A stretch of 64,000 bases of DNA. Source: Candidatus Bruticola sp. (GTDB taxonomy: Bacteria; Vulcanimicrobiota; Xenobia; Xenobiales; Xenobiaceae). Below the pieces are notes generated by a model. The model did not search any database and was not told the DNA's origin. It worked only from the letters and a program-made list of their open reading frames with translations. The translations under genes were made by a program, and so were the position numbers. Shown here piece by piece: positions 2,408 through 16,008 of this stretch. The stretch's first letter is position 1. Each line of letters opens with the position of its first letter. Where the stretch lies: the NCBI GenBank assembly GCA_051874735.1, contig JBJEGD010000026.1, positions 1-64,000 of the forward strand, written 5' to 3'.

Positions 2408-5400
2408 TTGATGGCTGCAATCGGCACTCAATCTTTGAGTCAATTAGTCAAGGTAAATATAGCTCAGAAGACAGAATTTGATTTATATCATGCTATCAAC
2501 GGCTCTGACGATGCTTTTTTAGGCAGCTGGTTTAAGCCGCTGTCTCCTCAACTGGAGGCGCTTAAAGCAGCTGCTAGAAGTTCAGTTAAAGGCGGTACAA
2601 TACTCTTAACTGGAGCTTACGGAGTAGGCAAAACTAGTCTTCTGGCCCTTTTAGGCAAGCTTCTTTCGATGAATGCTTCCTCGGAAGAGTTTAATTATGT
2701 TCTTTCTATTTTAGGTGATATTGCAGCTGTAAAAATCTTCAGTGAGTTGCGCTCCAGTTATAGTCCATGGCTGACAGTAGTACCTAAATTGGGTAAAGCT
2801 GGAACAGACTTTGCTACCTTAATGAAATCGGCTTTGCGTTCTTCCTTGTTGGATAAGAAGCTAAGTTTTTCTATAGATCCAAATCTTAGTTTAGAAGAAT
2901 TTTACAAAAAGGCCGTAGGTTTTGTCCGCCAGAACAATTTTGAGGGCATTTTGATTCTTTTCGATGAAGCTGATGCTTTAGTTGAAAAAGTACTTAAAAA
3001 CGATAATTCGGTCAGTGATTTGCGGGAGTTCTGCAGTTTCTGTCGCCAGGATGCCTCTTCAATTCTTTTTATTACTTGTGTGAACACTGAAATCAACCGC
3101 TTTTCCTTGGAAGAAGAAGATCAAGCGGTTGCGGTATTCTCCAAAGTTCAATCTGTTTCCATAATTGGTGGTATTGGAGAATGGGAGAGTTTTGTTAGTT
3201 CTTCCATTATTGATCATACTAAGGGCGAGTTATGGGATGCCCTAATAGACTATAAAGATCTTCGCAGCGTTGCCGAAGGTCTTATTCAGTCAGGCCTTTA
3301 TAAAGGCTGCTCGGAAAAATGGATCACTGAGACTGTTATGCAGGGGAACTATCCTCTTCATCCTGCCGTAGCTTTCTCTTTGCCGAGAGTAGCTTTAGTT
3401 ATGGCTGGTGCAGGCAAGACCGCTTTTAATTTCTTCTGTGATGCTGCTCCTGGTGGTTTCCTCTACTTCTTGCGCAATTTCGCTATTGTACAGCCTAATG
3501 GACGTCTCCATCTTTACACTCTCGATTCTCTTTTCACTTACTTTGAGAAAGTTTTTTCAGCAGATCCTGCTAATGCTGAGTACATAAAAGGGCTCAATAA
3601 GTCTATTATGATCGCGGGTGATATTCCTCAAGCTCGCCGTATTTTACGTTTGACCCTTTTAATTCAGTTAATTGCTCACGATCGATTTAAGAGCACTGAG
3701 GAAAATATTCTCTGGTCTATGCATTTAGGCGAAAAAGAGACAAAAGTCGCCAGTCATAGTCTGCAGCTGCTCAGAGAAAAGAAAGCTCTTGAGTTTAATG
3801 AAAAGACAGGCGAATACTCCTTGCCCATCGAGCGGCGCAAAGTTACTTTGAGTGAGGCGGTCTCGCGCATGCGCAATCGCGTGCGTTCTCAGCTCGATGT
3901 CTGTTCAATTATTAAAAATGGTTTGTCATTCAATAAAATAGAGGCTGAAGACTTTAACAGAGATTATTATACAGATCGTTTTGCCAGAGTTAGTGTGGCC
4001 TTAGCTTCAGAACTTGACGATCCTGTTAAATACATGAGCGAATTCGCCAGTAGTTTTGAACAGATACGTCCTTATCGAGGTGATCTCTGTTTCTTTATAG
4101 TGGTGCCAGAAACTGAAGAAGAGCTGCATCGTTTAAAACAACTGGTTGAAGATGGTATTTTCAAGCATGAGCGGCTTGTTTTTGCAATTCTAAAAGATAC
4201 AGTGCCCATTTCTAAAGAAGCTCTTGACTTCTTAGCTATAGAGAAGGTCTGCTCTGTAGAAGTTCCTTTCTGCGATCCTGCTTCAGCCGAACATGAAAAG
4301 GCAGTGGCTCTTATGGAAGAGAGCAAACAAATTTTAGAGGCTTCAGTTGCTCATATTGCTAACACTGAAAATCTCATTATTTATCATAATGGTGAAGTTT
4401 ACACCGACTTTGATATAGACAGCATCTTCAGGTTGATAGATAAGGCTATTGCCTCTTTAATTGGGCAGCCTCCTATGCTTAGTAATGGAGATCTTCTCAG
4501 TCTCCATGATGGAGGTATGGCCAGGCGTTTTAGACAAAATTTAATCTCTTATATCTTAGGATGCCGCGGTCCTATAGCCTTGCGTTATAATAACCGCAGT
4601 TTACTGAATATTATTCAGTCTGCCTTTGTGGAGACAGGTCTTTTGGCAGCTGAGGGAACTGGTGGAAGCTGGCACTACTTCCACTTAGTTAAAGGTGAGT
4701 CTAACTCCCAAATAGCTAAGGGTTACGCTTTCTTGTGTTCAGAAATTTTAGGCTCGCCCGGTTCTGTGTGCAGCACTGAGGTCAGTAAGGTAGTCAAAAC
4801 TTTAACTAGCGCCCCCTACGGATTTACTCCCGCTTTAATTGAACTTCTCCTTGCTCTGGCTTTCTGGCAGTTTCGTGATTATTTAGTTTTGCATAAAAAC
4901 TTGATTAGATCTCGTTTAGAACACTCCAATGAGGAACTGCAGGAAGTGCCTTTAAGCGCCAAGGTACTGTTCGATTTAGTGAGTGATCCCTCTGATTGGG
5001 AGATAACTTTTACCGATTGCACTCCTGAGCAGCTTGTCTATTTACATGGTTTGGCCGCTCTCTCTTCAGTGAATGCTGAGGGAGAGAGATCTATGTGGAG
5101 AATAGCTGGTAAGTCTCTGCTGGCTTTTTATAAAGGTTTGTCAGTCTCTTCTCGTTCAGCAGGCGCTTCTGGTGATGAAGAAGTTGAAAAACTGCGTACT
5201 CTTTTGGAGCAAAACAGCGGTGAAATTTATACCAGATATAGGGTGCTTCTGGAAGTGTCTATTCCTGAAGTTTTAGGTTTCGGCGCCAATTTTGACTGGG
5301 CGACCGATGCTAGTAAACTTTTGAATAGACTGAAAAATATGCTGCATGTTTTGGAAGATATACCTCATCAGCGGGCTGCCTCTCTCTGTTCCGCTTTGCA

Positions 5401-6502
5401 CAGCGTATTCGCTTCTCACGAAGGCGGCGATGACAGCTCTTCTTGGTATTCGTGTGCTTCTGCTTGGTACAGCAGTAATGCTTCCCTTTTTGAAGGAAAT
5501 CAAAAGTGGGCTGAAGAGCTCAAATCGTTGGCAGCGGTTGCTGAGTGCACCAATGATAATGAAGCTTTAAAGGTTCTCCTGCATTCGTTGGATTATCTTC
5601 CAGTTGAGGAATGGAAAACTGACAGCAATAACGAGATTATCGAGCGCTTCCGAGCAATGCGTCAAGATATTGAGTGGGGCAGTTATCGTAGTTCTTGTGT
5701 GCTTCCTTCAGAGACTGCTGCCGCTTATGGGATAATTAAGTCTGTTTTATGTAGCGCTTCTCCCCAAGATTTAGAAGCTTTCTTGGGCACTGAATTGGAG
5801 TGGGCTGTTTGGCCTGAAAAAGTTATTAGTGAACTTAGAAAAACTGATGATGTAGCTGATTATGGCGATTTAGATGAATGGACATACGCCGGTCCAGCTT
5901 CTCCGGTTATTCAGGCTGCTCGTTTGCAAGATTTGCAGCAGAACAGTGCTATTGAGGAAAAGATAGAGGCTCTTGACTTTGAGGACGAAATAGACTTAGA
6001 AGATAGCTCTGAGGTTGAGTTTGGTGAAGATAAGGATTATATTGATCGGATAGCTGAGCAAAGTAATGTTTCCGATCAAGTTGAGCCATCTGCACCTACT
6101 ATTGAACAGCCTGTCATTGAGCAGCCTGCCGTCGAACGGCCTATCATTGAACAGCCTGCCGTCGAACGGCCTGTCATTGAGCAGCCTGCCGTCGAACGGC
6201 CTATCATTGAACAGCCTGTCATTGAACAAACTGCTGAGTTAGCGGCTTCCGAAGATGCTAAAATTGTTGAAGTATCTCCTGATAAAGAAGAAGCTGCTGC
6301 GGAAGCGGGTGTGGAAGTTGAAGCTCAAGCAGAAGCAAAAAACGTATCTGAAATAGATAGTGTTGTAGAAGTTGAAAGTCAAGATAATATAACTGATAAT
6401 AAATCTGAAGCGAGTGATAAAGTTCAGACCGAAAGCTCATCTGATAATGATTCTTGGGCCAATGAATTCGATTTAGATGAGTCCACCCTTCAGTGGTTGT
6501 AA
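2408..6502 (+). CDS. large P-loop ATPase-like protein (DUF6079/BrxC-like N-terminal region) with acidic, repeat-containing C-terminal tail
   Basis: Walker A GAYGVGKT, Walker B ILFDEAD and YPLHP motif. 1364 aa; roughly the last 200 aa are acidic low-complexity. Family assignment is by motif resemblance only. Confidence 0.55.
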   Translation: MMAAIGTQSLSQLVKVNIAQKTEFDLYHAINGSDDAFLGSWFKPLSPQLEALKAAARSSVKGGTILLTGAYGVGKTSLLALLGKLLSMNASSEEFNYVLSILGDIAAVKIFSELRSSYSPWLTVVPKLGKAGTDFATLMKSALRSSLLDKKLSFSIDPNLSLEEFYKKAVGFVRQNNFEGILILFDEADALVEKVLKNDNSVSDLREFCSFCRQDASSILFITCVNTEINRFSLEEEDQAVAVFSKVQSVSIIGGIGEWESFVSSSIIDHTKGELWDALIDYKDLRSVAEGLIQSGLYKGCSEKWITETVMQGNYPLHPAVAFSLPRVALVMAGAGKTAFNFFCDAAPGGFLYFLRNFAIVQPNGRLHLYTLDSLFTYFEKVFSADPANAEYIKGLNKSIMIAGDIPQARRILRLTLLIQLIAHDRFKSTEENILWSMHLGEKETKVASHSLQLLREKKALEFNEKTGEYSLPIERRKVTLSEAVSRMRNRVRSQLDVCSIIKNGLSFNKIEAEDFNRDYYTDRFARVSVALASELDDPVKYMSEFASSFEQIRPYRGDLCFFIVVPETEEELHRLKQLVEDGIFKHERLVFAILKDTVPISKEALDFLAIEKVCSVEVPFCDPASAEHEKAVALMEESKQILEASVAHIANTENLIIYHNGEVYTDFDIDSIFRLIDKAIASLIGQPPMLSNGDLLSLHDGGMARRFRQNLISYILGCRGPIALRYNNRSLLNIIQSAFVETGLLAAEGTGGSWHYFHLVKGESNSQIAKGYAFLCSEILGSPGSVCSTEVSKVVKTLTSAPYGFTPALIELLLALAFWQFRDYLVLHKNLIRSRLEHSNEELQEVPLSAKVLFDLVSDPSDWEITFTDCTPEQLVYLHGLAALSSVNAEGERSMWRIAGKSLLAFYKGLSVSSRSAGASGDEEVEKLRTLLEQNSGEIYTRYRVLLEVSIPEVLGFGANFDWATDASKLLNRLKNMLHVLEDIPHQRAASLCSALHSVFASHEGGDDSSSWYSCASAWYSSNASLFEGNQKWAEELKSLAAVAECTNDNEALKVLLHSLDYLPVEEWKTDSNNEIIERFRAMRQDIEWGSYRSSCVLPSETAAAYGIIKSVLCSASPQDLEAFLGTELEWAVWPEKVISELRKTDDVADYGDLDEWTYAGPASPVIQAARLQDLQQNSAIEEKIEALDFEDEIDLEDSSEVEFGEDKDYIDRIAEQSNVSDQVEPSAPTIEQPVIEQPAVERPIIEQPAVERPVIEQPAVERPIIEQPVIEQTAELAASEDAKIVEVSPDKEEAAAEAGVEVEAQAEAKNVSEIDSVVEVESQDNITDNKSEASDKVQTESSSDNDSWANEFDLDESTLQWL
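6101..6228 (+). repeat. coding tandem repeat, 15-bp unit, about 8.5 copies, with 30/60-bp higher-order period (IEQPA/VERPI)
   Basis: Units attgaacagcctgtc, attgagcagcctgcc and gtcgaacggcctatc alternate, read directly from the sequence. Confidence 0.95.
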
Positions 6503-7799: not shown

Positions 7800-8267
7800 G
7801 TGCACTGTCCATTTTGTGATTATCAAGATACTAAGGTTGTTGATTCTAGGCTATCCGATGACGGAGCTGCTGTACGGCGCCGCCGGGAGTGCGTGTCTTG
7901 TCAAAAGCGTTTTACCACTTATGAACGATGTGAGGGGGTGCCTTTAGTTGTTATTAAGCAAGATGGACGCAAGGTTAATTTCGACAGACAGAAATTGCTG
8001 CGTGGTGTCTTAATGGCTTGCAAGAAAAGGCCTATCCCCTATGAGCGTTTGGAATCTCTATCCAGCCGTGTTGAACAGGAATTGAGAAACAAAGGATTTA
8101 AAGAAGTTCCATCCAGAGTTATTGGTGAGTGTGTAATGAATGCTCTGCGCGATCTGGATGACGTCGCTTATATGCGCTACGCTTCTATATGTAAGAATTT
8201 TAAAGATATTAACAGCTTTTCGGCCGAAATTATGGCATTGAAAAAGCGAGAAAATAGTTCTCTATAA
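7800..8267 (+). CDS. nrdR: transcriptional repressor NrdR
   Basis: MHCPFC...KVVDSR...RRRRECVSCQKRFTTYE zinc ribbon followed by an ATP-cone domain. Confidence 0.97.
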   Translation: MHCPFCDYQDTKVVDSRLSDDGAAVRRRRECVSCQKRFTTYERCEGVPLVVIKQDGRKVNFDRQKLLRGVLMACKKRPIPYERLESLSSRVEQELRNKGFKEVPSRVIGECVMNALRDLDDVAYMRYASICKNFKDINSFSAEIMALKKRENSSL

Positions 8268-8281
8268 GGAGATAAGGTTAC

Positions 8282-9115
8282 ATGAGCAAATCCTCTCTGA
8301 GTGAGATGATTGCGGATGCCGTAAAAGCTATTCGCAAGTACACCGATATCGTTCCTGAAGTCGCTATGATTTTAGGTTCCGGTTTGGGCAGTCTGGCCGA
8401 TCAAGTGGAAAATCCTGTTGAAGTACCTTATAAAGATATTCCAGGTTTCTCAGTTTCTACAGTGCACGGTCATGTAGGGTCTATGGTTCTTGGCACTTTA
8501 GAAGGCCGCTTTGTGGCTATATTAAAAGGTCGTGTTCATTACTATGAGGGTCACAAAATGGAGAACATTATTTTCCCTGTTCGCGTTCTCCACGCTTTGG
8601 GTGCCGATACTTTAGTAGTAACCAATGCTGCTGGGGGTATCCGTGACGATCTTAAGGTCGGCGACCTTATGCTTATTACCGATCATATTAACTTTATGGG
8701 AGCAAATCCTTTAGTTGGTCCTAACGATGAAAAGATCGGCCCCCGTTTTCCGCCTATGTCCAGAGCCTATACTCCCGCTCTTCAGGAATTAGCTCGTAAA
8801 GTAGCTGAGGAAGTAGGCTTTAAGCTTACTGAGGGTGTTTATGTAGCTATGTCAGGGCCTTCATACGAGACTCCTGCTGAAATTCGTATGCTCAAAGGTT
8901 TCGGCGCTGATGTAGTCGGCATGTCAACCGTTCCTGAAACTATTGCTGCAGCTCATTGCGGAATGAAGGTTGTGGGTATTTCCTGCGTTACCAATGTGCT
9001 CCATCATGGCCCTTCCAGTGACACTCATGAAGATGTATTGAGGGCTGCTGCTGAAGCTAAACCTCGCTTTATAAATTTGGTTCGTGGTATCGTAAGGGGG
9101 TTAAATAAACAATGA
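8282..9115 (+). CDS. punA: purine-nucleoside phosphorylase (trimeric, PunA/XapA type)
   Basis: ILGSGLG, GRVHYYEG, TNAAGG, GPSYETPAE, VGMSTVPE and SCVTN motifs. Confidence 0.95.
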   Translation: MSKSSLSEMIADAVKAIRKYTDIVPEVAMILGSGLGSLADQVENPVEVPYKDIPGFSVSTVHGHVGSMVLGTLEGRFVAILKGRVHYYEGHKMENIIFPVRVLHALGADTLVVTNAAGGIRDDLKVGDLMLITDHINFMGANPLVGPNDEKIGPRFPPMSRAYTPALQELARKVAEEVGFKLTEGVYVAMSGPSYETPAEIRMLKGFGADVVGMSTVPETIAAAHCGMKVVGISCVTNVLHHGPSSDTHEDVLRAAAEAKPRFINLVRGIVRGLNKQ

Positions 9116-10422
9116 ATCCTTATCAGTTCATTCTTAAAAAACGCAATGGCGGTGAGCATACTGCTGAAGAAATTCGTGAGTTCATTTTAAATTATGCTGC
9201 CGGCCACGACGTTGAACCTTATCAAATGTCTGCTTGGCTTATGTCAGTTTGGTTCAACGGTATGACCGTTCCGGAATTGTCTGCTCTTACTCAAGCCATG
9301 ATTGATTCCGGCGATGTAGTTGATCTTTCTAGTTTGCCTGGTGTGAAAGTTGATAAGCATTCCACCGGTGGTGTGGGCGATACAACTACTCTTATCTTAG
9401 CTCCTTTGGCTGCTGCTGCAGGAGCTACTGTAGCTAAAATGTCAGGACGCGGTTTAGGCCATACCGGCGGCACTCTCGACAAGCTTGAATCTGTTCCCGG
9501 TCTTCGTACTAATTTGACTTCTCAGGAATTTTTAGACCAGGTTAAGCGCATAGGTGTTGCGGTAATCAGCCAAACTGGCAATTTAGTTCCAGCTGATGGA
9601 AAAATGTACGCTTTGCGCGATGTAACGGCTACAGTCGATTCCATTCCGTTAATTGCCTCTTCAGTAATGAGCAAAAAGATAGCCTGCGGTGCTGAGTGTA
9701 TTCTTCTCGATGTCAAGTATGGTCGCGGCGCTTTTATGACTAATCTTAAAGACGCTCGTGAGTTAGCCCGTCGCATGGTCGATTTGGGAACTCATATCGG
9801 CCGTAGAGTTAGAGCGGTTATTTCCGATATGGATCAGCCTTTAGGTACTCTTATCGGCAATGCTCTCGAAGTTCGCGAAGCAATTGAGATTTTGCGCAAC
9901 GAGCGTCCTGGATCAGCTTTAGAAACCGTTTCTGTAGAGTTGGCCTCCCATCTGTTGGAAATGGCTGGTATATGCCCCGATTTGGATAGCTCTCGTAGCA
10001 AAATTCGTGAATTATTGGTCAATGGCGCCGGTTTACGCAAATTGGGTGAAATGTTCTCCGCTCAGGGAGGCAACGGTGAGGTTGTAAACGATTTATCTTT
10101 GCTGCCTCAGGCTTCTATTATTGAACCTGTTGTCGCTCCTAGATCCGGCTATGTCTCTTCTATACACGCTCAAAAGATAGGCTTTGCCGCTACTGCTTTA
10201 GGCGCTGGCCGGTTGAGAAAAGAAGATTCTATCGATCCTGCTGTGGGTATAGAAATGACTCACAGAGTTGGTTCAAAAATTGAAGCTGGCGAGCCTTTAG
10301 CTATTCTTCACGCTAATAAGCCTGAGACTATTGAGGAAGCTAAACGCTTTATACTTGAGTCTATAGTTATAGGTGATGAGGAAGTTGCTCCTCGCGCCCT
10401 TATTGAAGAAGTCGTCGAGTAA
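9112..10422 (+). CDS. pdp: pyrimidine-nucleoside/thymidine phosphorylase
   Basis: DKHSTGGVGD, KMSGRGLGHTGGTLDKLES and SVMSKK motifs; 4-nt overlap with punA. Confidence 0.95.
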   Translation: MNPYQFILKKRNGGEHTAEEIREFILNYAAGHDVEPYQMSAWLMSVWFNGMTVPELSALTQAMIDSGDVVDLSSLPGVKVDKHSTGGVGDTTTLILAPLAAAAGATVAKMSGRGLGHTGGTLDKLESVPGLRTNLTSQEFLDQVKRIGVAVISQTGNLVPADGKMYALRDVTATVDSIPLIASSVMSKKIACGAECILLDVKYGRGAFMTNLKDARELARRMVDLGTHIGRRVRAVISDMDQPLGTLIGNALEVREAIEILRNERPGSALETVSVELASHLLEMAGICPDLDSSRSKIRELLVNGAGLRKLGEMFSAQGGNGEVVNDLSLLPQASIIEPVVAPRSGYVSSIHAQKIGFAATALGAGRLRKEDSIDPAVGIEMTHRVGSKIEAGEPLAILHANKPETIEEAKRFILESIVIGDEEVAPRALIEEVVE

Positions 10423-10531
10423 TCGACATTCTGTTTAAGCAGTGTTTGGGATGGGGGCAGTGTTTGAGCTTTGTGCCACTAGAATATCTGCTCCCATTAA
10501 CTGTTTCAGAGCGGCCGTTTTGCAAAGGCTG

Positions 10532-10568
10532 ATAGTTCGCCTGATACTTGCAGTTGGGCTGTTTTTTT
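10532..10568 (+). terminator. possible intrinsic terminator after pdp
   Basis: atagttcgcctg/cagttgggctgt stem with several G-U pairs, followed by a T run. Confidence 0.4.
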
Positions 10569-11223
10569 CTTGATAACAATCGAAAGTTAATTTCAACTTT
10601 ATTTTTTAGAGTTGGCTGATTCGGTTGTGTGTCGATTAGTTCAGTTTTCCTCAATAATATCAAGGTGATTTGCTGCGCTTTTTAGTATTGAGCTGTCGTG
10701 TAATTATTTTTAATAAAAATTATTTATAGGTTGATAGTAAGCAATATGCTGCAAATTTAGGCAGTATTTTTAAGCAATTCATTCAAAAGGCACAGAGCTA
10801 GTGATGTGTTTTGCTCTTAATTTAACCGAACAAACGTATTAAAGTATTATTTGCGGCTATGTGTTTTAAGGCGGAGTGGATATACCTTACTGAGGTAAAA
10901 ATATAAAGCTTTTTTGTAAGGACGGCCTGTAGTTTTTTATAAATTATTTATTATTTTGTAGCAGCGATTCGCTGTGGTTTGGTTGGGTCTGCTTTTTTTA
11001 GGATTACTAGCTTTGTCTGTTCTTATTTCCAGAGCTCAACAGACATAGCCGATTTTTTCTATATTTAAGCGTCTTTTTCACCGTAGAGCTTGCCTTGTTT
11101 AAGGGTTGCGTGCTCCGGTTTGAATTCTATAGACGTCATTTTTTACAGCATCGGGCCAACTTAGCGATCTGAAAGGCTGCGATTTATGGAAGAGTATTCT
11201 TTGGAGGTTTTTTAAATAATTAT

Positions 11224-14136
11224 ATGATGCTTCGCAATATGCAGGGAGCTAAAGATATCTTAGCTTCAGAAGCTGCACCGTGGCACTTTGTAGAGAATGT
11301 AGCTATAGAATTAGCTGAAATTTATGGCTACAGGGAAGTCCGCACCCCTATTTTTGAGAACATAGAATTATTTGTCAAAGGAATGGGCAGCACGTCCAGC
11401 TTTATTGAGAATGATCTTTGGATAGTGTCTGATAAGCAAAACCATCGTTGGGCTATGCGTGCTGATATGCTTATGCCCATGATTAGAGCTATTAACGATG
11501 CAGATTTGCCAATTTCCAGAAATGGTGAACCCGCTAAGTTTTATTATTTGGCCCCTGTGTTTTCTGCTTCTAAAGGACGCGAGCAGTCCGCTTTACAAAG
11601 CCATCGCTTTGGAGTTGGTGCGATAGGCTCGACTTTACCTAGTCTCGATGTTGAAGCCATGATGATCGCGTATGACTTTTTTAACGCTTTAGGTTTAACC
11701 GATCTCAAAGTTCAACTGAATTCTCTTGGCTGCAAAAAGTGCCGTGCTGAATATCAGCAGGGACTTTATGATTATTTCTCCCGTCGCAGTGATGAACTTT
11801 GTCCCAAGTGTCATCATCGTTACCGCACCCATCCCCTTTGGACTATGGGATGTGAAGAAAAGTGTTGTCGAGAGCTCTCTCAAGTAGCTCCTTCTATTTT
11901 CGGTTATCTCTGCCCCGAATGTCGTGAACATTTTGAGGCAGTACGCACTTATTTGAACGAGCTTAAAGTTTCTTATCGTCTTTCACCTCTTCTAGTTCCA
12001 GATGTTGAGTGCTATAACCGTACTATTTTCCAAATTAGTTGCGGTGATAAGCTGCTCAGTTTCGGAGGCAGATGTGATGAACTCTCTCGCTTGCTAGGTG
12101 GACGTGATATTCCTGCTGTCGATTGCTCTGTCGATTTGGACATGACTTTGAAAGCTGTGCGCGAGGCTAATTTAGTGCCTAATATCGAAAGGCACTCCGA
12201 TGTTTGTTTGGCTGGCAGCAGTCAAGAGGCAGTCGCTCTGCTTTTGCCTGTTTTGTACGCTTTGCGCCGAGCAGGCATTTATGCAGAGTTGGCTTATCCT
12301 AATTCCGGAGAGGGATGTGCTTTAGAAGCTGCTGAAAACTCTAATGCCGGTTTTGTTATTTACCTAGATGATTCTTCGCTGCGCCAGCGTGTAGTTCGGT
12401 TTAGAGAGCTCAATAATTCTTTCCGTGATTCTCATTTAGATGAAGCGTTGCGTCGAATCGGTCGTTATTTTGGCATTGAAGGTTTAGCTGATGAACTTCG
12501 TCCTGTAGAAGTTAGGAAATTCTCTATTTCTCGTCGTCAGCCGGCCAGTATGCGCCAAACTTATGAAATTTTTGAGCCCACTCATCAAAATGAATCGCTT
12601 ACAGCTAAAGATAATAGATCTACTGCTGAAGACAATGGAGTACGAAAAGTAGAACGCGATTCAAATCGAGGCAACGGAAGCCGAGAAAAGTCTGCTGCTC
12701 AATCGGATTTCAATGATGAGGAACAGTATTTAATTGATGACAGCAATGTCGCTGATATTCAGGCCCATTGTCAGTCAATGACACCCCAGGAACGAGCTGA
12801 ATTTGAGATGACCCCTCTGCATAGTGGTGGCGCTCATCACAGTGTGCGTTCTCGACGCAGCCGCAATAAATCTGCCGCTGGAGAGAAATTAGCTATACCG
12901 GCCCAGGAAAAAGTTCGCGCACGAATTATGGCTATAACTTCTGCTGTAGAAGATGTACTCGGTGAACCTGAGGGGGTGGAGGAAAGTAAAACGGCCGACA
13001 ATTCCGGAGAGTTTGAAGCTGATTCTGCAGCTGAGGCTGAAGTTACTGTTCCTGTTACGCGCCGCCGTCGTCGCAGACGTACTGAAGCTTTATCTAATGT
13101 TGAAGAATCTGCTCTAAAAGTAAAGGCAGGCGACAAAAAGTCTCGTTTGAGCAGTTGCAAGCGCCTTGTCGATTCAGAGTATTGTGAAACTGCTAAAGCA
13201 GAAAATAATGAGGCCTTTACTGAGGTGTGTGCTATTCCTGAGGTAGATGCTATTGCTGAGATTTCTGCTTCAGATAAAGCGATGAGTGATGAACAGATTG
13301 AGCAGGCTTTGGCTCTTCCCAAAATTGAGGGAGAGAAAAGTTTTGTTGAGGTAGATGAACCTGTAGTCAGTTCTGTTTATGTGCGTCGCTTCTGCAATGG
13401 CAGCCACGCTTCTGAACTGGAAGAAGACGATATAGAAGCAGCTCGTCTTAGCTATGATCGAGCTTTAACCGTTTCTTCTCGCGGTCGACGTGAAGATTAT
13501 GGACAGCGCAGATCTAGCAGTCGAGATACCGACATAGATGTAGCTTCTTCAAAAGAAAATGTTTCTGCCACCGATCCAGAAGAGGTAATGGTGAATAAGT
13601 CAGATGAGGTAGAAGAGAAGCCTAAGTCTACTATAAGGCGCCGCATGCGTACTCCTGTAAGTTCTTCTCAAGCTACTGCTGCTGCCAACTACGATTATCG
13701 TATGAATAGTGCTTACAGTCAGAGCTCTTACAGTGAAAATGCTAGAAGCGACTATATGAGCCATTATGATGGTACTGATACCTATCAAGACTACATGAAA
13801 TACTATGGTAGAGACGCCGATAATTTAGAGCATTTTGACTATTCTTCTTATAGTTCTTATGCCGGAAATAGTTTAGAGGCCGGGTGCAGCGAGTTAGATG
13901 AAGCTAACAGGTACAGGGTAGATGAGCTTTATTTGGGTGACAACTACTCAGATGTACGGGCTATGGGAACTTCGGACTCATATGGCCGCCGATCTTCGAG
14001 CGGTCGCAGCAGACACGGCTCTTCCTCTTCAGTAGATCCTTATAAAGCAGCTAACTCTGGGTCTGTTTCTGGATATCGCCGTCGTTCTAGCCGCCGATCG
14101 TCTACTAGCCGTTCTAGAAGACGCAACAGTCGTTAA
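11224..14136 (+). CDS. degenerate histidyl-tRNA synthetase paralog fused to a long disordered C-terminal extension
   Basis: The first ~420 aa follow the HisS layout (GAKDIL, YGYREVRTPIFE, LNSLGCKKCR, anticodon-binding domain) but catalytic motifs are altered. The remaining ~550 aa are low-complexity. Confidence 0.8.
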   Translation: MMLRNMQGAKDILASEAAPWHFVENVAIELAEIYGYREVRTPIFENIELFVKGMGSTSSFIENDLWIVSDKQNHRWAMRADMLMPMIRAINDADLPISRNGEPAKFYYLAPVFSASKGREQSALQSHRFGVGAIGSTLPSLDVEAMMIAYDFFNALGLTDLKVQLNSLGCKKCRAEYQQGLYDYFSRRSDELCPKCHHRYRTHPLWTMGCEEKCCRELSQVAPSIFGYLCPECREHFEAVRTYLNELKVSYRLSPLLVPDVECYNRTIFQISCGDKLLSFGGRCDELSRLLGGRDIPAVDCSVDLDMTLKAVREANLVPNIERHSDVCLAGSSQEAVALLLPVLYALRRAGIYAELAYPNSGEGCALEAAENSNAGFVIYLDDSSLRQRVVRFRELNNSFRDSHLDEALRRIGRYFGIEGLADELRPVEVRKFSISRRQPASMRQTYEIFEPTHQNESLTAKDNRSTAEDNGVRKVERDSNRGNGSREKSAAQSDFNDEEQYLIDDSNVADIQAHCQSMTPQERAEFEMTPLHSGGAHHSVRSRRSRNKSAAGEKLAIPAQEKVRARIMAITSAVEDVLGEPEGVEESKTADNSGEFEADSAAEAEVTVPVTRRRRRRRTEALSNVEESALKVKAGDKKSRLSSCKRLVDSEYCETAKAENNEAFTEVCAIPEVDAIAEISASDKAMSDEQIEQALALPKIEGEKSFVEVDEPVVSSVYVRRFCNGSHASELEEDDIEAARLSYDRALTVSSRGRREDYGQRRSSSRDTDIDVASSKENVSATDPEEVMVNKSDEVEEKPKSTIRRRMRTPVSSSQATAAANYDYRMNSAYSQSSYSENARSDYMSHYDGTDTYQDYMKYYGRDADNLEHFDYSSYSSYAGNSLEAGCSELDEANRYRVDELYLGDNYSDVRAMGTSDSYGRRSSSGRSRHGSSSSVDPYKAANSGSVSGYRRRSSRRSSTSRSRRRNSR

Positions 14137-14170
14137 GTAAAATCTGAAAGAATCTCTTGCGTTTTACTTT

Positions 14171-14225
14171 CGCCCCTTACGTGTGCAGGATAATTTGAAA
14201 AGTTATTTTGTACTTACAAGGGGCG
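14171..14225. terminator. long hairpin between convergent genes
   Basis: Outer stem cgcccctt...aaggggcg with inner stem gtgcaggataatt/agttattttgtac. Confidence 0.55.
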
Positions 14226-14263
14226 CAGGATATCCTCGATAAGTAGCGCGAGGGATTCATTTT

Positions 14264-14884
14264 TTATTTTGTGTTTTTTTTGTCGCTCATATCAGCTAGC
14301 CAACGGCAGGCGGCCATCCGACCGTACTTATTTTCGTAAAGTAAAATTTTGTTTAGCATATTTCCCAGAAGAACCATACCGATATTGTTGAGCTTAGCGG
14401 CTTCAGCTTCAAGGTGATTGTCTATTAGAAAATGGTATTCGACCCAACGGGCCATGCCTTCTTTGTATCCTTTAAAATTGCGCAGCATTTCATGTTCAGC
14501 CTGAAAGGCGTGAGTTAACTCATGACAGAGTACTGACTTAAATTTAGTGCGTTCCAGACCGGGGATAATAGTAATCATATGAGTGGAAACTAATCCCATA
14601 TGCTGGCAGCAGTAGTTGCCTATATGGTTAAAATTGGCTGTCATACGCCATTTCCAAGTCCAGGTTTTAGGTTGGCCTAGTTTAATAACTATAGGGTAGG
14701 CTAAACTGATGGAAAATTCTTTTTTTAAGTAATCTTTAACTTCTTGCATAGCCATTTTGGCCTGCACTTCATTATTGATAATTTCTGCTTTTTCAAATTC
14801 AGAGGTTCTAATTTTAAAATCGCTCTGACCTGTGAGCAAAAATTCAATATATCTACCTATGTAATTAAGAATTTTGACAATCAT
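14264..14884 (-). CDS. putative zinc metallopeptidase (DA1-like HExxH)
   Basis: VLCHELTHAFQ followed by EGMARWVEY, a gluzincin-type pattern. Confidence 0.6.
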   Translation of the reverse strand: MIVKILNYIGRYIEFLLTGQSDFKIRTSEFEKAEIINNEVQAKMAMQEVKDYLKKEFSISLAYPIVIKLGQPKTWTWKWRMTANFNHIGNYCCQHMGLVSTHMITIIPGLERTKFKSVLCHELTHAFQAEHEMLRNFKGYKEGMARWVEYHFLIDNHLEAEAAKLNNIGMVLLGNMLNKILLYENKYGRMAACRWLADMSDKKNTK

Positions 14885-15012: not shown

Positions 15013-16008
15013 ATGGTGGTCATGAACTTAAAAAAAATAGCTGTATCTTTAGTTATAGGACTAAGCAGTGCGCTGAGCACTCTTCCTAGTGAGGCGGAAC
15101 CTATTAATTTGAGTCCGTTTTGTCACAATTGCGCCTGTACTTCTCAAGCTAATTCAGTTTATGATACTGAGCAAAAAGTTAAAAAAGCCGCTGATTTCCT
15201 CAGAAAAAAAATTAATTTCAAACCGGAAATTCTCATTATTTTAGGATCTGGCTTGGGACCTTTGGCTGATATAGCAGAAAACAAAATAGAAATTTCCTAT
15301 AATGATATCCCTGGGTTCGCCGTTTCTACAGTTGAAGGTCATGTTGGATCATTAGTTTTTGGCCAAATTGAAGGCAAAAATGTTGTTATAATGCGCGGCC
15401 GCGTTCACTGTTATGAAGGATATAAAGCCAATCAGGTAGTTCTTCCCGTTTTAACAGCCAAAGCTTTGGGAGTAAAAACTTTAATTGTTAGCAATTCTTC
15501 AGGAGCAATCAGTCAGGGCCATTATTTAGGTGAACTCATACTTATAAAAGATCATATAAACTTTTTAGGTTCCAACCCTATGGTTGGCCCTAACAGCGAG
15601 AAGTTGGGGCCGCGTTTTTTCGATATGAATTCAGCTTATACTGAAAAACTGCGCCGTTTAGCTTTTCAAGAAGCAGAAAAGATGGGAATAAAACTTAAAG
15701 AAGGCGTATACGCCGCCATGCTTGGACCATCTTATGAAACTCCGGCTGAAAGAAAAATGCTTCGTATAATGGGAGCAGATGTTGTTGGTATGTCTACTGT
15801 TCCCGAAGTTATTGCGGCCGTTTACAGTGGCATGCAGGTTCTGGGCTTCTCTTGTGTTACTGATGTTCCGGCTGACATCCCCAAATTAGTAAACAAAGAT
15901 GAATCTGATAGCACCTTTACTAATCATGAAGATGTTTTAAAAACTGCTGAAAAAGCTCAATCTGACTTGGGCAAACTGATTAAGGCTATACTTAAAAATA
16001 TAGATTAA
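15013..16008 (+). CDS. purine-nucleoside phosphorylase paralog with N-terminal signal peptide
   Basis: ILGSGLG, GRVHCYEG, GPSYETPAE, VGMSTVPE and SCVTD motifs. The N-terminus MNLKKIAVSLVIGLSSALSTLPSEA resembles a Sec signal; the start may be 15022. Confidence 0.9.
   Translation: MVVMNLKKIAVSLVIGLSSALSTLPSEAEPINLSPFCHNCACTSQANSVYDTEQKVKKAADFLRKKINFKPEILIILGSGLGPLADIAENKIEISYNDIPGFAVSTVEGHVGSLVFGQIEGKNVVIMRGRVHCYEGYKANQVVLPVLTAKALGVKTLIVSNSSGAISQGHYLGELILIKDHINFLGSNPMVGPNSEKLGPRFFDMNSAYTEKLRRLAFQEAEKMGIKLKEGVYAAMLGPSYETPAERKMLRIMGADVVGMSTVPEVIAAVYSGMQVLGFSCVTDVPADIPKLVNKDESDSTFTNHEDVLKTAEKAQSDLGKLIKAILKNID

Follow-up and report, generated by a model that had tools for sequence, protein, structure and literature searches.

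Why should a bacterium retain a histidyl-tRNA synthetase (HisRS) that appears unable to activate histidine, and why should this protein carry a disordered tail of several hundred residues? The question is raised by a single gene of Candidatus Bruticola sp., a member of class Ca. Xenobia in the phylum Vulcanimicrobiota (NCBI taxonomy), which lies on contig JBJEGD010000026.1 of GenBank assembly GCA_051874735.1. The stretch analyzed here, referred to as the window, comprises positions 1 to 64,000 of the forward strand of this contig, and the gene encodes a HisRS-derived protein termed P0001. Our analyses indicate that P0001 is very probably a non-catalytic HisRS that has been repurposed and is maintained by selection. 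The more specific proposal, according to which it serves as a non-catalytic and probably dimeric RNA- or tRNA-binding scaffold or chaperone, is one that we would give roughly even chances.

The reading frame of 970 codons is uninterrupted and opens with ATG-ATG. As described in the original prediction, which had been made from the sequence alone, it is preceded by a Shine-Dalgarno-like GGAGG; the spacer to the ATG is long, and the block CTTTGGAGGTTTT..ATATGATG is kept in three congeners. In an AlphaFold2 model built from a 40-sequence family alignment, residues 9-428 are folded confidently, with predicted local distance difference test (pLDDT) values of mostly 80-96 over 10-residue blocks, and these residues constitute the catalytic core, eight-cysteine insertion, and anticodon-binding domain of the bacterial HisRS type. 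Pfam recognizes tRNA-synt_His over residues 8-306 (E 3.6e-22) and, below threshold, HGTP_anticodon at residues 335-399 (15.6 bits versus a cut-off of 21). The top NCBIfam match is the hisS equivalog TIGR00442, whose cut-off of 286.75 is not reached (231.7 bits, or 234.3 bits in a genome-wide scan). Structural comparison using Foldseek aligned the folded part with whole chains of bacterial HisRS over 415-425 columns, the best being 4e51_A and the tRNA complex 4rdx_A (TMt 0.82 over 417-423 columns for both), while the best solved relative by sequence was S. aureus HisRS 1qe0 (phmmer, E 5e-53), with an alignment extending to residue 397.

Several parts of this fold are strongly conserved among the 40 family members. 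Motif 1, the dimer interface of class II enzymes, has invariant E38, R40, T41, and P42, and together with general knowledge of class IIa enzymes this indicates that the folded part is probably dimeric. In the insertion, cysteines occur as four pairs (C170/C173, C193/C196, C210/C215, and C230/C233), of which C193, C196, C210, and C215 are invariant and the remaining four are at least 90% conserved; judging from these residues, the domain probably binds zinc at two sites. Most of the aligned canonical HisRS have the identical eight-cysteine pattern, so the insertion is an inherited module and no novelty of this family. The HisB motif reads GGRCD, with R283 and D285 invariant, and the anticodon-binding domain is modeled with pLDDT of mainly 80-93. 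Thus, both domains that had been predicted to be kept are indeed kept, the anticodon-binding domain as a fold.

In the active site, the situation is very different. Every motif change listed in the original prediction is present in alignments to canonical HisRS: in HisA (residues 78-83) LRPEGT has become MRADML, in motif 2 FRYERPQKGRYRQF has become FSASKGREQSALQS, RGLDYY has become PDVECY, and motif 3 (G-x-ER-L, GLERL) has become DLDMTL, with loss of its arginine. GGGRYD has, in addition, become FGGRCD. Motif 2 (residues 113-128) reads FSASKGREQSALQSHR, and the change from FRYER to FSASK removes both its arginine and its glutamate. In class II synthetases, the motif 2 and motif 3 arginines bind ATP and, together with the motif 2 glutamate, support adenylate formation. 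All three residues are gone from each of the 14 proteins examined from families f1 to f3, and among 172 aligned database proteins the 44 that lack the motif 2 arginine all lack the motif 3 arginine as well. The protein is accordingly HisRS-derived and devoid of the class II ATP-binding arginines, just as first proposed, and from this loss we strongly infer, rather than observe, that it is catalytically dead, because the roles of the arginines are taken from textbook knowledge. Six representative HisRS of ordinary length (P0065, P0096, P0114, P0115, P0154, and P0160) keep the motif 2 arginine and lack that of motif 3; these may be independent degenerate copies in other lineages.

The residues with which HisRS recognizes its tRNA can be considered in the same manner, using matches to T. 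thermophilus HisRS that were counted by hand along an HMMER alignment. By this count, R112, the motif 2 arginine, corresponds to S114 and E114 to S116, whereas E64 corresponds to D64 and G72-G73 to Q72-N73. Within the anticodon-binding domain, E386-D387-E388 corresponds to D383-S384-S385 and K397 to R394. In a structural paper on the T. thermophilus enzyme, Glu114 is described as absolutely essential for aminoacylation, Gly72'-Gly73' as making room for G-1, and Glu386-Glu388 as reading G34.

If P0001 does not charge tRNA, another protein must presumably do so, and the original prediction had named a canonical hisS elsewhere in the genome as the first thing to look for. Such a gene exists. The genome (G000; 2.47 Mb in 42 contigs, 92.4% complete) carries on contig C35 a second HisRS gene scoring 350.1 bits with TIGR00442, above the cut-off, and its 437-residue product (P0173) has intact motifs (WRGERPQEGRFREFYQ, RGLDYY, GGRYE, and GLSRL). 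ARAGORN identified 49 tRNA genes, including a single tRNA-His(GUG) gene that itself encodes G-1, C73, and CCA. A search for hisG detected none in this genome, in 18 other genomes of its family (f1), or in five f2 genomes, while 7 of the 44 genomes of the class have hisG, with open frames of 302-387 residues. The HisZ model TIGR00443 assigns P0001 72.7 bits against a cut-off of 271.65, covers only residues 10-169, and has no match above its cut-off anywhere in the genome. HisZ identity was rejected based upon this low score, the failure to find hisG, and the kept anticodon-binding domain, and the position of the protein within the bacterial-type HisRS in the phylogeny described below likewise agrees with its proposed exclusion from HisZ. 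Since its genome has a canonical hisS elsewhere and a single tRNA-His, and hisG was not detected, P0001 is neither the working synthetase nor a HisZ. NCBI labels P0002, an 82%-identical homolog, "ATP phosphoribosyltransferase regulatory subunit" (HisZ), which is probably a misannotation, since hisG was not found and no match reaches the HisZ cut-off.

A dead enzyme might simply be in decay, and it is the substitution pattern that speaks most directly to this issue. Ratios of nonsynonymous to synonymous substitutions (dN/dS) were calculated by the Nei-Gojobori method, mainly against the nearest species (G019). For the core plus insertion, dN was 0.022 and dS 1.18 (dN/dS 0.019); for the anticodon-binding domain, 0.022 and 1.84 (0.012); for the tail, 0.188 and 1.29 (0.145); and for the canonical hisS of the same two genomes, 0.046 and 1.07 (0.043). 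The corresponding ratios for P0001 against G012 were 0.036, 0.066, and 0.331. Because dS is near saturation (1.1-1.8) the ratios are rough, yet their ranking is still clear; in more distant pairs, dS is saturated. Hence, the folded part of the dead enzyme changes at the protein level half as fast as the working hisS, the tail is constrained too, and the prediction that this gene is no pseudogene undergoing neutral decay is borne out.

The distribution of the family is also telling. A search restricted to proteins of near-equal length yielded 30 proteins at E<=0.001 among 8000 candidates, long-tailed homologs being numerous; their sources include Candidatus Bruticola sp., bacterium UBP9_UBA11836, and Candidatus Xenobia bacterium, and their labels vary among HisZ, histidyl-tRNA synthetase, and hypothetical protein. 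An exhaustive search of representative proteins (6619 at E<=0.001) ranked tailed relatives first (581-1135 residues, 31-60% identity), followed by HisRS of about 420 residues (26-35%). Tallies were then made over 151 genomes sampled from the phylum, an unpublished genome (G127) entering only these tallies. Tailed orthologs with 37-96% identity and open frames of 559-1090 residues are present in 36 of the 40 genomes examined from f1 to f3, the three families that make up the order to which the window belongs, including the genome of the window itself. Genomes of these families without a full ortholog have fragments at contig ends (G084 and G078) or no match at E<=1e-10 (G080, G044, and G094), and their assemblies are mostly 72-90% complete. 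All five families of the class encode both a bacterial-type HisRS and a divergent, P0173-like HisRS, which we refer to as type 2. Outside the class, type 2 was found only in five genomes, each without a bacterial-type match, and the remaining families of the phylum have the bacterial type only.

The sister families offer some insight into how this state may have arisen. In family f4, the bacterial-type gene already encodes an Arg-rich tail (protein lengths of 663, 666, and at least 502 residues) and RGLDYY is degenerate, while both class II arginines are kept. As judged from these sequences, the tailed f4 proteins could represent an intermediate stage and may have retained activity. At three f4 loci (L019, L020, and L021 of G040, G102, and G108) the tailed HisRS was encountered alongside type-2 HisRS in the same genomes. 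The single f5 genome has a degenerate copy without a tail. In a 60-row maximum-likelihood tree (LG+C20, quick search, branch support by the Shimodaira-Hasegawa-like approximate likelihood ratio test [SH-aLRT] only, with no bootstraps), the f1 to f3 proteins form one clade (SH-aLRT 100) whose branching mirrors the division into families and genera. The f4 and f5 proteins group with this clade (SH-aLRT 98), and all of them together lie beside canonical HisRS from two further families of the phylum (82), within the bacterial-type HisRS. We read this as suggesting that the ancestor of the class had two coexisting HisRS types, and that the order of events may have been the gain of a tail, the loss of the catalytic arginines at the base of the order, and then the loss of most histidine-pocket residues in the genus of the window, where the replacements relative to the basal genera are T to L, Q to R, E to G, Y to C, and G to D.

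Beyond the fold lies the most unusual portion of the protein (Table 1). A tail of about 550 disordered residues had been foreseen; pLDDT drops below 50 at residue 429, inside a conserved basic linker, and the resulting 542-residue tail stays below 50 apart from short helices at residues 508-529, 560-576, 676-696, 734-749, and 854-862. The linker (residues 421-458, LADELRPVEVRKFSISRRQ...) has mean identities of 0.81-0.93 among 16 f1 proteins, and its motif ELRPVEVR+xSI can be recognized in more distant genera as well. Residues 441-970 contain 11% Arg, 4% Lys, 18% Asp plus Glu, 15% Ser, and 5% Tyr, together with just 16% hydrophobic residues, compared with 30% in the folded part. Acidic and basic blocks alternate along the charge profile, and the acidic blocks, the poly-Arg run, the Tyr/Asp/Ser-rich segment, and the terminal Arg/Ser (RS) region that were initially reported were all found. 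SRRSR occurs at residues 543-547. Columns R542, R544, and R547 are at least 90% conserved, and the consensus holds an RRRR run. Ten of the final 20 residues are Arg and seven are Ser, and Arg-rich ends recur among the orthologs. Residues 672-704 include predicted helices at 676-682 and 689-696 with pLDDT of 70-79, and this element is, by inference, a candidate partner-binding motif. Together, it and the linker look like short binding motifs inside a region that is otherwise selected for its composition.

Among orthologs, it is the composition of the tail and not its sequence that is held in common. The 17 ortholog tails compared (62-572 residues) are hardly alignable, whereas they contain 11-29% Arg, 33-59% charged residues, and 3-17% hydrophobic residues, with a net charge of approximately zero; one of them has long (RD)n repeats. 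The tail is thus rich in Arg that is balanced by acidic residues, poor in hydrophobic residues, and predicted to be disordered, as are Arg-rich mixed-charge domains. One study (PMC9324279) reports phase separation and RNA affinity for a peptide with blocky, Arg-rich mixed charge.

Table 1. Coordinates of the HisRS-like gene, the parts of its product, and the upstream genes
Feature	Residues	Position	Strand	Basis
Whole open reading frame, 970-residue HisRS-derived pseudoenzyme with disordered tail (P0001)	1-970	11224..14136	+	Open reading frame, orthologs
N-terminal class II core	1-168	11224..11727	+	Pfam, motif tables, T. thermophilus HisRS alignment
Cys-rich insertion domain	169-250	11728..11973	+	Conserved Cys, pLDDT >90
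C-terminal core part	251-320	11974..12183	+	Motif tables, invariant columns
Anticodon-binding-domain fold	327-420	12202..12483	+	AlphaFold2, phmmer, Foldseek
Conserved basic linker LADELRPVEVRKFSISRRQPASMRQTYEIFEP	421-458	12484..12597	+	Conservation in f1
Disordered tail (542 residues)	429-970	12508..14133	+	AlphaFold2 pLDDT, composition, charge profile
Seven-arginine run	613-619	13060..13080	+	Read from sequence, charge profile
Conserved helical element PEVDAIAEISASDKAMSDEQIEQALALPKIEGE	672-704	13237..13335	+	Conservation block within f1
Tyr/Ser/Asp-rich low-complexity segment	818-905	13675..13938	+	3-5 Tyr per 20 residues
Arg/Ser-rich C-terminal end	915-970	13966..14133	+	Charge profile
Shine-Dalgarno-like GGAGG		11203-11207	+	Read from sequence; 16 nt before ATG
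nrdR		7800-8267	+	Pfam
Purine nucleoside phosphorylase		8282-9115	+	Pfam
Pyrimidine nucleoside phosphorylase		9112-10422	+	Pfam

Similar regions are rare in the genome, and the proteins that carry them are informative. We scanned its 1731 open reading frames (ORFs) of at least 150 residues using 80-residue windows (Arg >=12%, Asp plus Glu >=12%, hydrophobic <=18%), and only 25 contain an Arg-rich mixed-charge window. By Pfam, the six ORFs richest in such windows encode an FHA-domain protein, a URO-D-like protein with an RS/RG tail, Rho, polynucleotide phosphorylase (PNPase), IF-2, and the HisRS-like protein itself. Rho (C3:66581-68581, L056) has an N-terminal disordered region of about 290 residues that is rich in Tyr, Asp, Ser, and Arg and is similar in composition to residues 818-905 of P0001. 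PNPase (C4:103104-106019, L057) has a C-terminal tail of about 250 residues with (P)ER/VER repeats and a terminal Arg run. Its open frames, which run from stop to stop so that these lengths are upper bounds, measure 831-1057 residues in 25 of the 26 full-length f1 to f3 matches (the remaining one, of 770 residues, abuts a contig end) and mostly 710-811 residues in other families, with one of 1107. Consequently, the PNPase extension has the same taxonomic distribution as the tail of the HisRS-like protein. The extensions of PNPase and Rho suggest that this lineage as a whole employs disordered regions in its RNA metabolism. In Bacteroides thetaiotaomicron, condensation of Rho is reported to be driven by its disordered region. 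We also observed that the 951-residue FHA-domain protein (C31:31565-34420, L059) has dozens of GFDRD/GYDRE pentapeptides along with acidic EEYHNEDYEVIEEE repeats, and that the genome encodes an RNase E/G homolog (open frame of 654 residues) and RNase Y.

Based upon these features, several suggestions can be made regarding the function of the protein. The original prediction had proposed a repurposed tRNA sensor or a condensate-forming, RNA-binding scaffold, roles that are argued from composition and analogy. Firstly, the gene may be the original bacterial-type hisS of the lineage, which would have become redundant once the second, divergent type-2 HisRS (P0173) charged the tRNA, and would then have been kept for a non-catalytic job. 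Secondly, the folded dimer could act as an RNA- or tRNA-shaped docking module, as in the HisRS-like domain of Gcn2, while the two tails per dimer would touch RNA through numerous weak interactions of Arg, Arg/Ser, and Tyr, and the short conserved tail helices would serve protein partners. A docking module combined with multivalent tails is what leads us to propose an RNA-binding scaffold or chaperone, and the tail grammar that is shared with PNPase and Rho is the reason for suggesting that these proteins may gather on RNA; the Bacteroides Rho and the blocky mixed-charge peptide mentioned above serve as precedents. Taken one step further, the dead HisRS dimer could nucleate an RNA-protein condensate. 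Its two tails, with their eukaryote-like combination of Arg/Asp-Glu mixed charge, Tyr-rich low complexity, and an RS end, would then collect tRNA or other RNA along with PNPase and Rho, both of which would have gained matching tails within this lineage. We regard this stronger version as improbable. If it were true, phosphorylation of Ser might modulate the RS end, and bacteria would have evolved independently a counterpart of RS/mixed-charge condensates, built upon a synthetase-derived RNA-docking module.

A number of observations weigh against the scaffold or chaperone model. Tyr enrichment does not extend to all tails, as Tyr makes up 0% of those in g4, g5, and f3, and the dN/dS ratios are rough for the reason given above. 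Specific recognition of tRNA-His is doubtful because the G-1 pocket has become Gln-Asn and the G34-reading triad Asp-Ser-Ser. Furthermore, the extreme constraint on the old active-site domain hints at more than a plain scaffold would need; the low dN/dS of this domain suggests some specific ligand or partner. Lastly, the scaffold model leaves unexplained why the gene has a conserved position behind nrdR-punA-pdp.

The latter two points also bear on the possibility of an allosteric subunit in the manner of HisZ, in which the dead core would bind histidine or another small ligand and regulate a partner, possibly the upstream nucleoside phosphorylases. Its main support is genomic: in 12 of 13 loci, drawn from three families, the next gene upstream is on the same strand and encodes a pyrimidine nucleoside phosphorylase, usually preceded by genes for a purine nucleoside phosphorylase, NrdR, and an FtsA-like protein. 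A review treats HisZ as a known precedent of a non-catalytic HisRS paralog acting as a regulator, and in the more basal genera of the family the HisA Thr, the Gln and Glu that close motif 2, the GGRYD Tyr, and GFA/GCS are largely kept while the ATP-binding arginines are gone. The old catalytic domain is also under extreme constraint. However, in the genus of the window these pocket residues have been replaced, and hisG was not found in its genome or in the other f1 genomes. In addition, the upstream gene lies at a distance that varies among loci (130-820 bp), which gives no clear indication of co-transcription, and such a subunit would leave no role for the kept anticodon-binding domain or for an Arg-rich tail of 540 residues. 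On balance, an allosteric subunit seems unlikely to us.

A sensor or sequestering factor specific for uncharged tRNA-His, functioning as a Gcn2-like starvation sensor whose tail recruits an effector, is something to which we assign a similarly low probability. Both tRNA-contacting domains are kept and highly constrained, Gcn2 supplies a precedent, and the organism probably depends on imported histidine, because hisG was not found in its genome. However, neither the G-1 pocket glycines nor the G34-reading acidic triad is conserved, Pfam and NCBIfam scans detected no kinase or other effector domain in the protein, and there is no conserved adjoining gene for an effector. Far less probable still is that P0001 remains an enzyme, either as a HisRS with an unorthodox active site or as an amino-acid ligase acting on a non-tRNA acceptor. 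HisB R283 and D285 and several other core positions are invariant, and in f4 the two class II arginines are present in proteins that bear a tail, from which it follows that a tail and activity can coexist; against this stand the loss of the motif 2 arginine and glutamate and the motif 3 arginine from all f1 to f3 members examined, the TIGR00442 score below the cut-off, and the presence of a canonical hisS. That the gene is a decaying relic without function can be virtually dismissed, since its degenerate active-site motifs, more so in the genus of the window than in basal genera, coincide with an intact frame, open-frame orthologs in most f1 to f3 genomes, and dN/dS values (0.012-0.019 for the folded part and 0.145 for the tail) that, short of an artifact, refute it.

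When the surroundings of the gene are examined, a number of additional features are apparent. In the window, an unusually long AT-rich gap of about 800 bp (10423-11223) precedes the gene, and a block of about 53 nt within it (11074-11126, TTTTTCACCGTAGAGCTTGCC...GGTTTGAATT) is kept in three species of the genus and has no Rfam match. Folding of positions 11066-11135 gave a hairpin no more stable than those of shuffled sequences (z = -1.27). A T-box or other leader RNA was considered and rejected, as an Rfam scan of positions 10300-14400 at E<=1 returned only a chance mir-282 match (E 0.66). Promoter-like sites (8 versus 7.7 expected) and terminator-like sites (5 versus 4.6) were no more abundant than in shuffled sequences. 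An ancestral synteny of the hisS-aspS type was likewise rejected: the conserved genes downstream in f2 and f3, judged by eye, resemble none of aspS, dtd, or relA, and their products look like an ABC transporter, an aminotransferase, and a biotin-carboxyl-carrier protein. Downstream in the window, a second purine nucleoside phosphorylase paralog with an N-terminal signal-like hydrophobic segment (15013-16008) is kept in g1 and g3 loci. Between it and the HisRS-like gene, on the opposite strand (14264-14884), is a gene for a 206-residue protein without a Pfam match, which adjoins the HisRS-like gene in five g1/g3 loci and whose HELTH motif is possibly a metallopeptidase-like HExxH. Farther upstream, positions 2408-6502 encode a 1364-residue protein in which Pfam identifies no domain confidently and whose C-terminal part contains a run of P(V/I)IEQPAVER repeats.

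Non-catalytic relatives of synthetases are a recognized source of new regulators, to which this family adds a bacterial HisRS case. Several of its qualities are distinctive. It keeps the whole enzyme architecture, the anticodon-binding domain included, and the sequence of events, from two coexisting types through tail gain and arginine loss to pocket loss, can be read from living lineages. Its tail is also among the longest eukaryote-like Arg-rich, Tyr-rich, RS disordered regions observed in the genome. Our literature searches, which did not cover supplements, found no description of a tailed HisRS-like family, and a table in a review of synthetase duplications lists HisZ as the sole HisRS paralog. 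There is a practical aspect as well, in that the mixed labels of the homologs could lead metabolic reconstructions to infer wrongly a regulation of histidine biosynthesis or a second HisRS.

How, then, does P0001 compare with systems that are already known? Bacterial HisRS with the Cys-rich insertion, such as those of S. aureus (1qe0) and T. thermophilus (1adj and 4rdx), have the same fold and domain order at 26-35% identity, whereas P0001 has degenerate motifs 2 and 3, HisA, and RGLDYY and has acquired a basic linker and a disordered tail. HisZ is likewise a bacterial HisRS-derived protein that lost adenylation and took up a non-catalytic role; it is not known to have an anticodon-binding domain, and its partner is a short HisG. 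Unlike HisZ, P0001 has both this domain and its 540-residue tail, occurs in genomes without a detected hisG, and branches inside the bacterial-type HisRS beside the enzymes of its own phylum. With regard to the tail, eukaryotic Arg-rich mixed-charge and RS domains of nuclear-speckle and nucleolar proteins are similar in their RD/RE repeats, Arg blocks, and RS-rich ends, although the likeness is one of composition only, with no homology and in a bacterial setting. The C-terminal domain of RNase E in the BR-bodies of Caulobacter is a disordered region that drives condensation, and both this protein and the Rho of Bacteroides resemble P0001 in carrying a long, disordered, charged region on a folded RNA-related core. 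Their cores are active enzymes, however, while that of P0001 is a dead synthetase for which condensation is only proposed here. A functional parallel is to be found in Gcn2, whose HisRS-like domain is described as mimicking the catalytic and anticodon-binding domains without the adenylation elements or the anticodon-decoding side chains, its regulatory role being thought to involve the binding of deacylated tRNA. P0001 similarly has HisRS-like catalytic and anticodon-binding domains without the adenylation elements, but Gcn2 is a eukaryotic multi-domain kinase, while P0001 arose independently from a bacterial-type HisRS and has a disordered tail instead. The likeness is functional, with no homology other than that of HisRS itself. 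Falling below the defining thresholds of both HisRS and HisZ and having no kinase as in Gcn2, P0001 belongs with the synthetase-derived pseudoenzymes.

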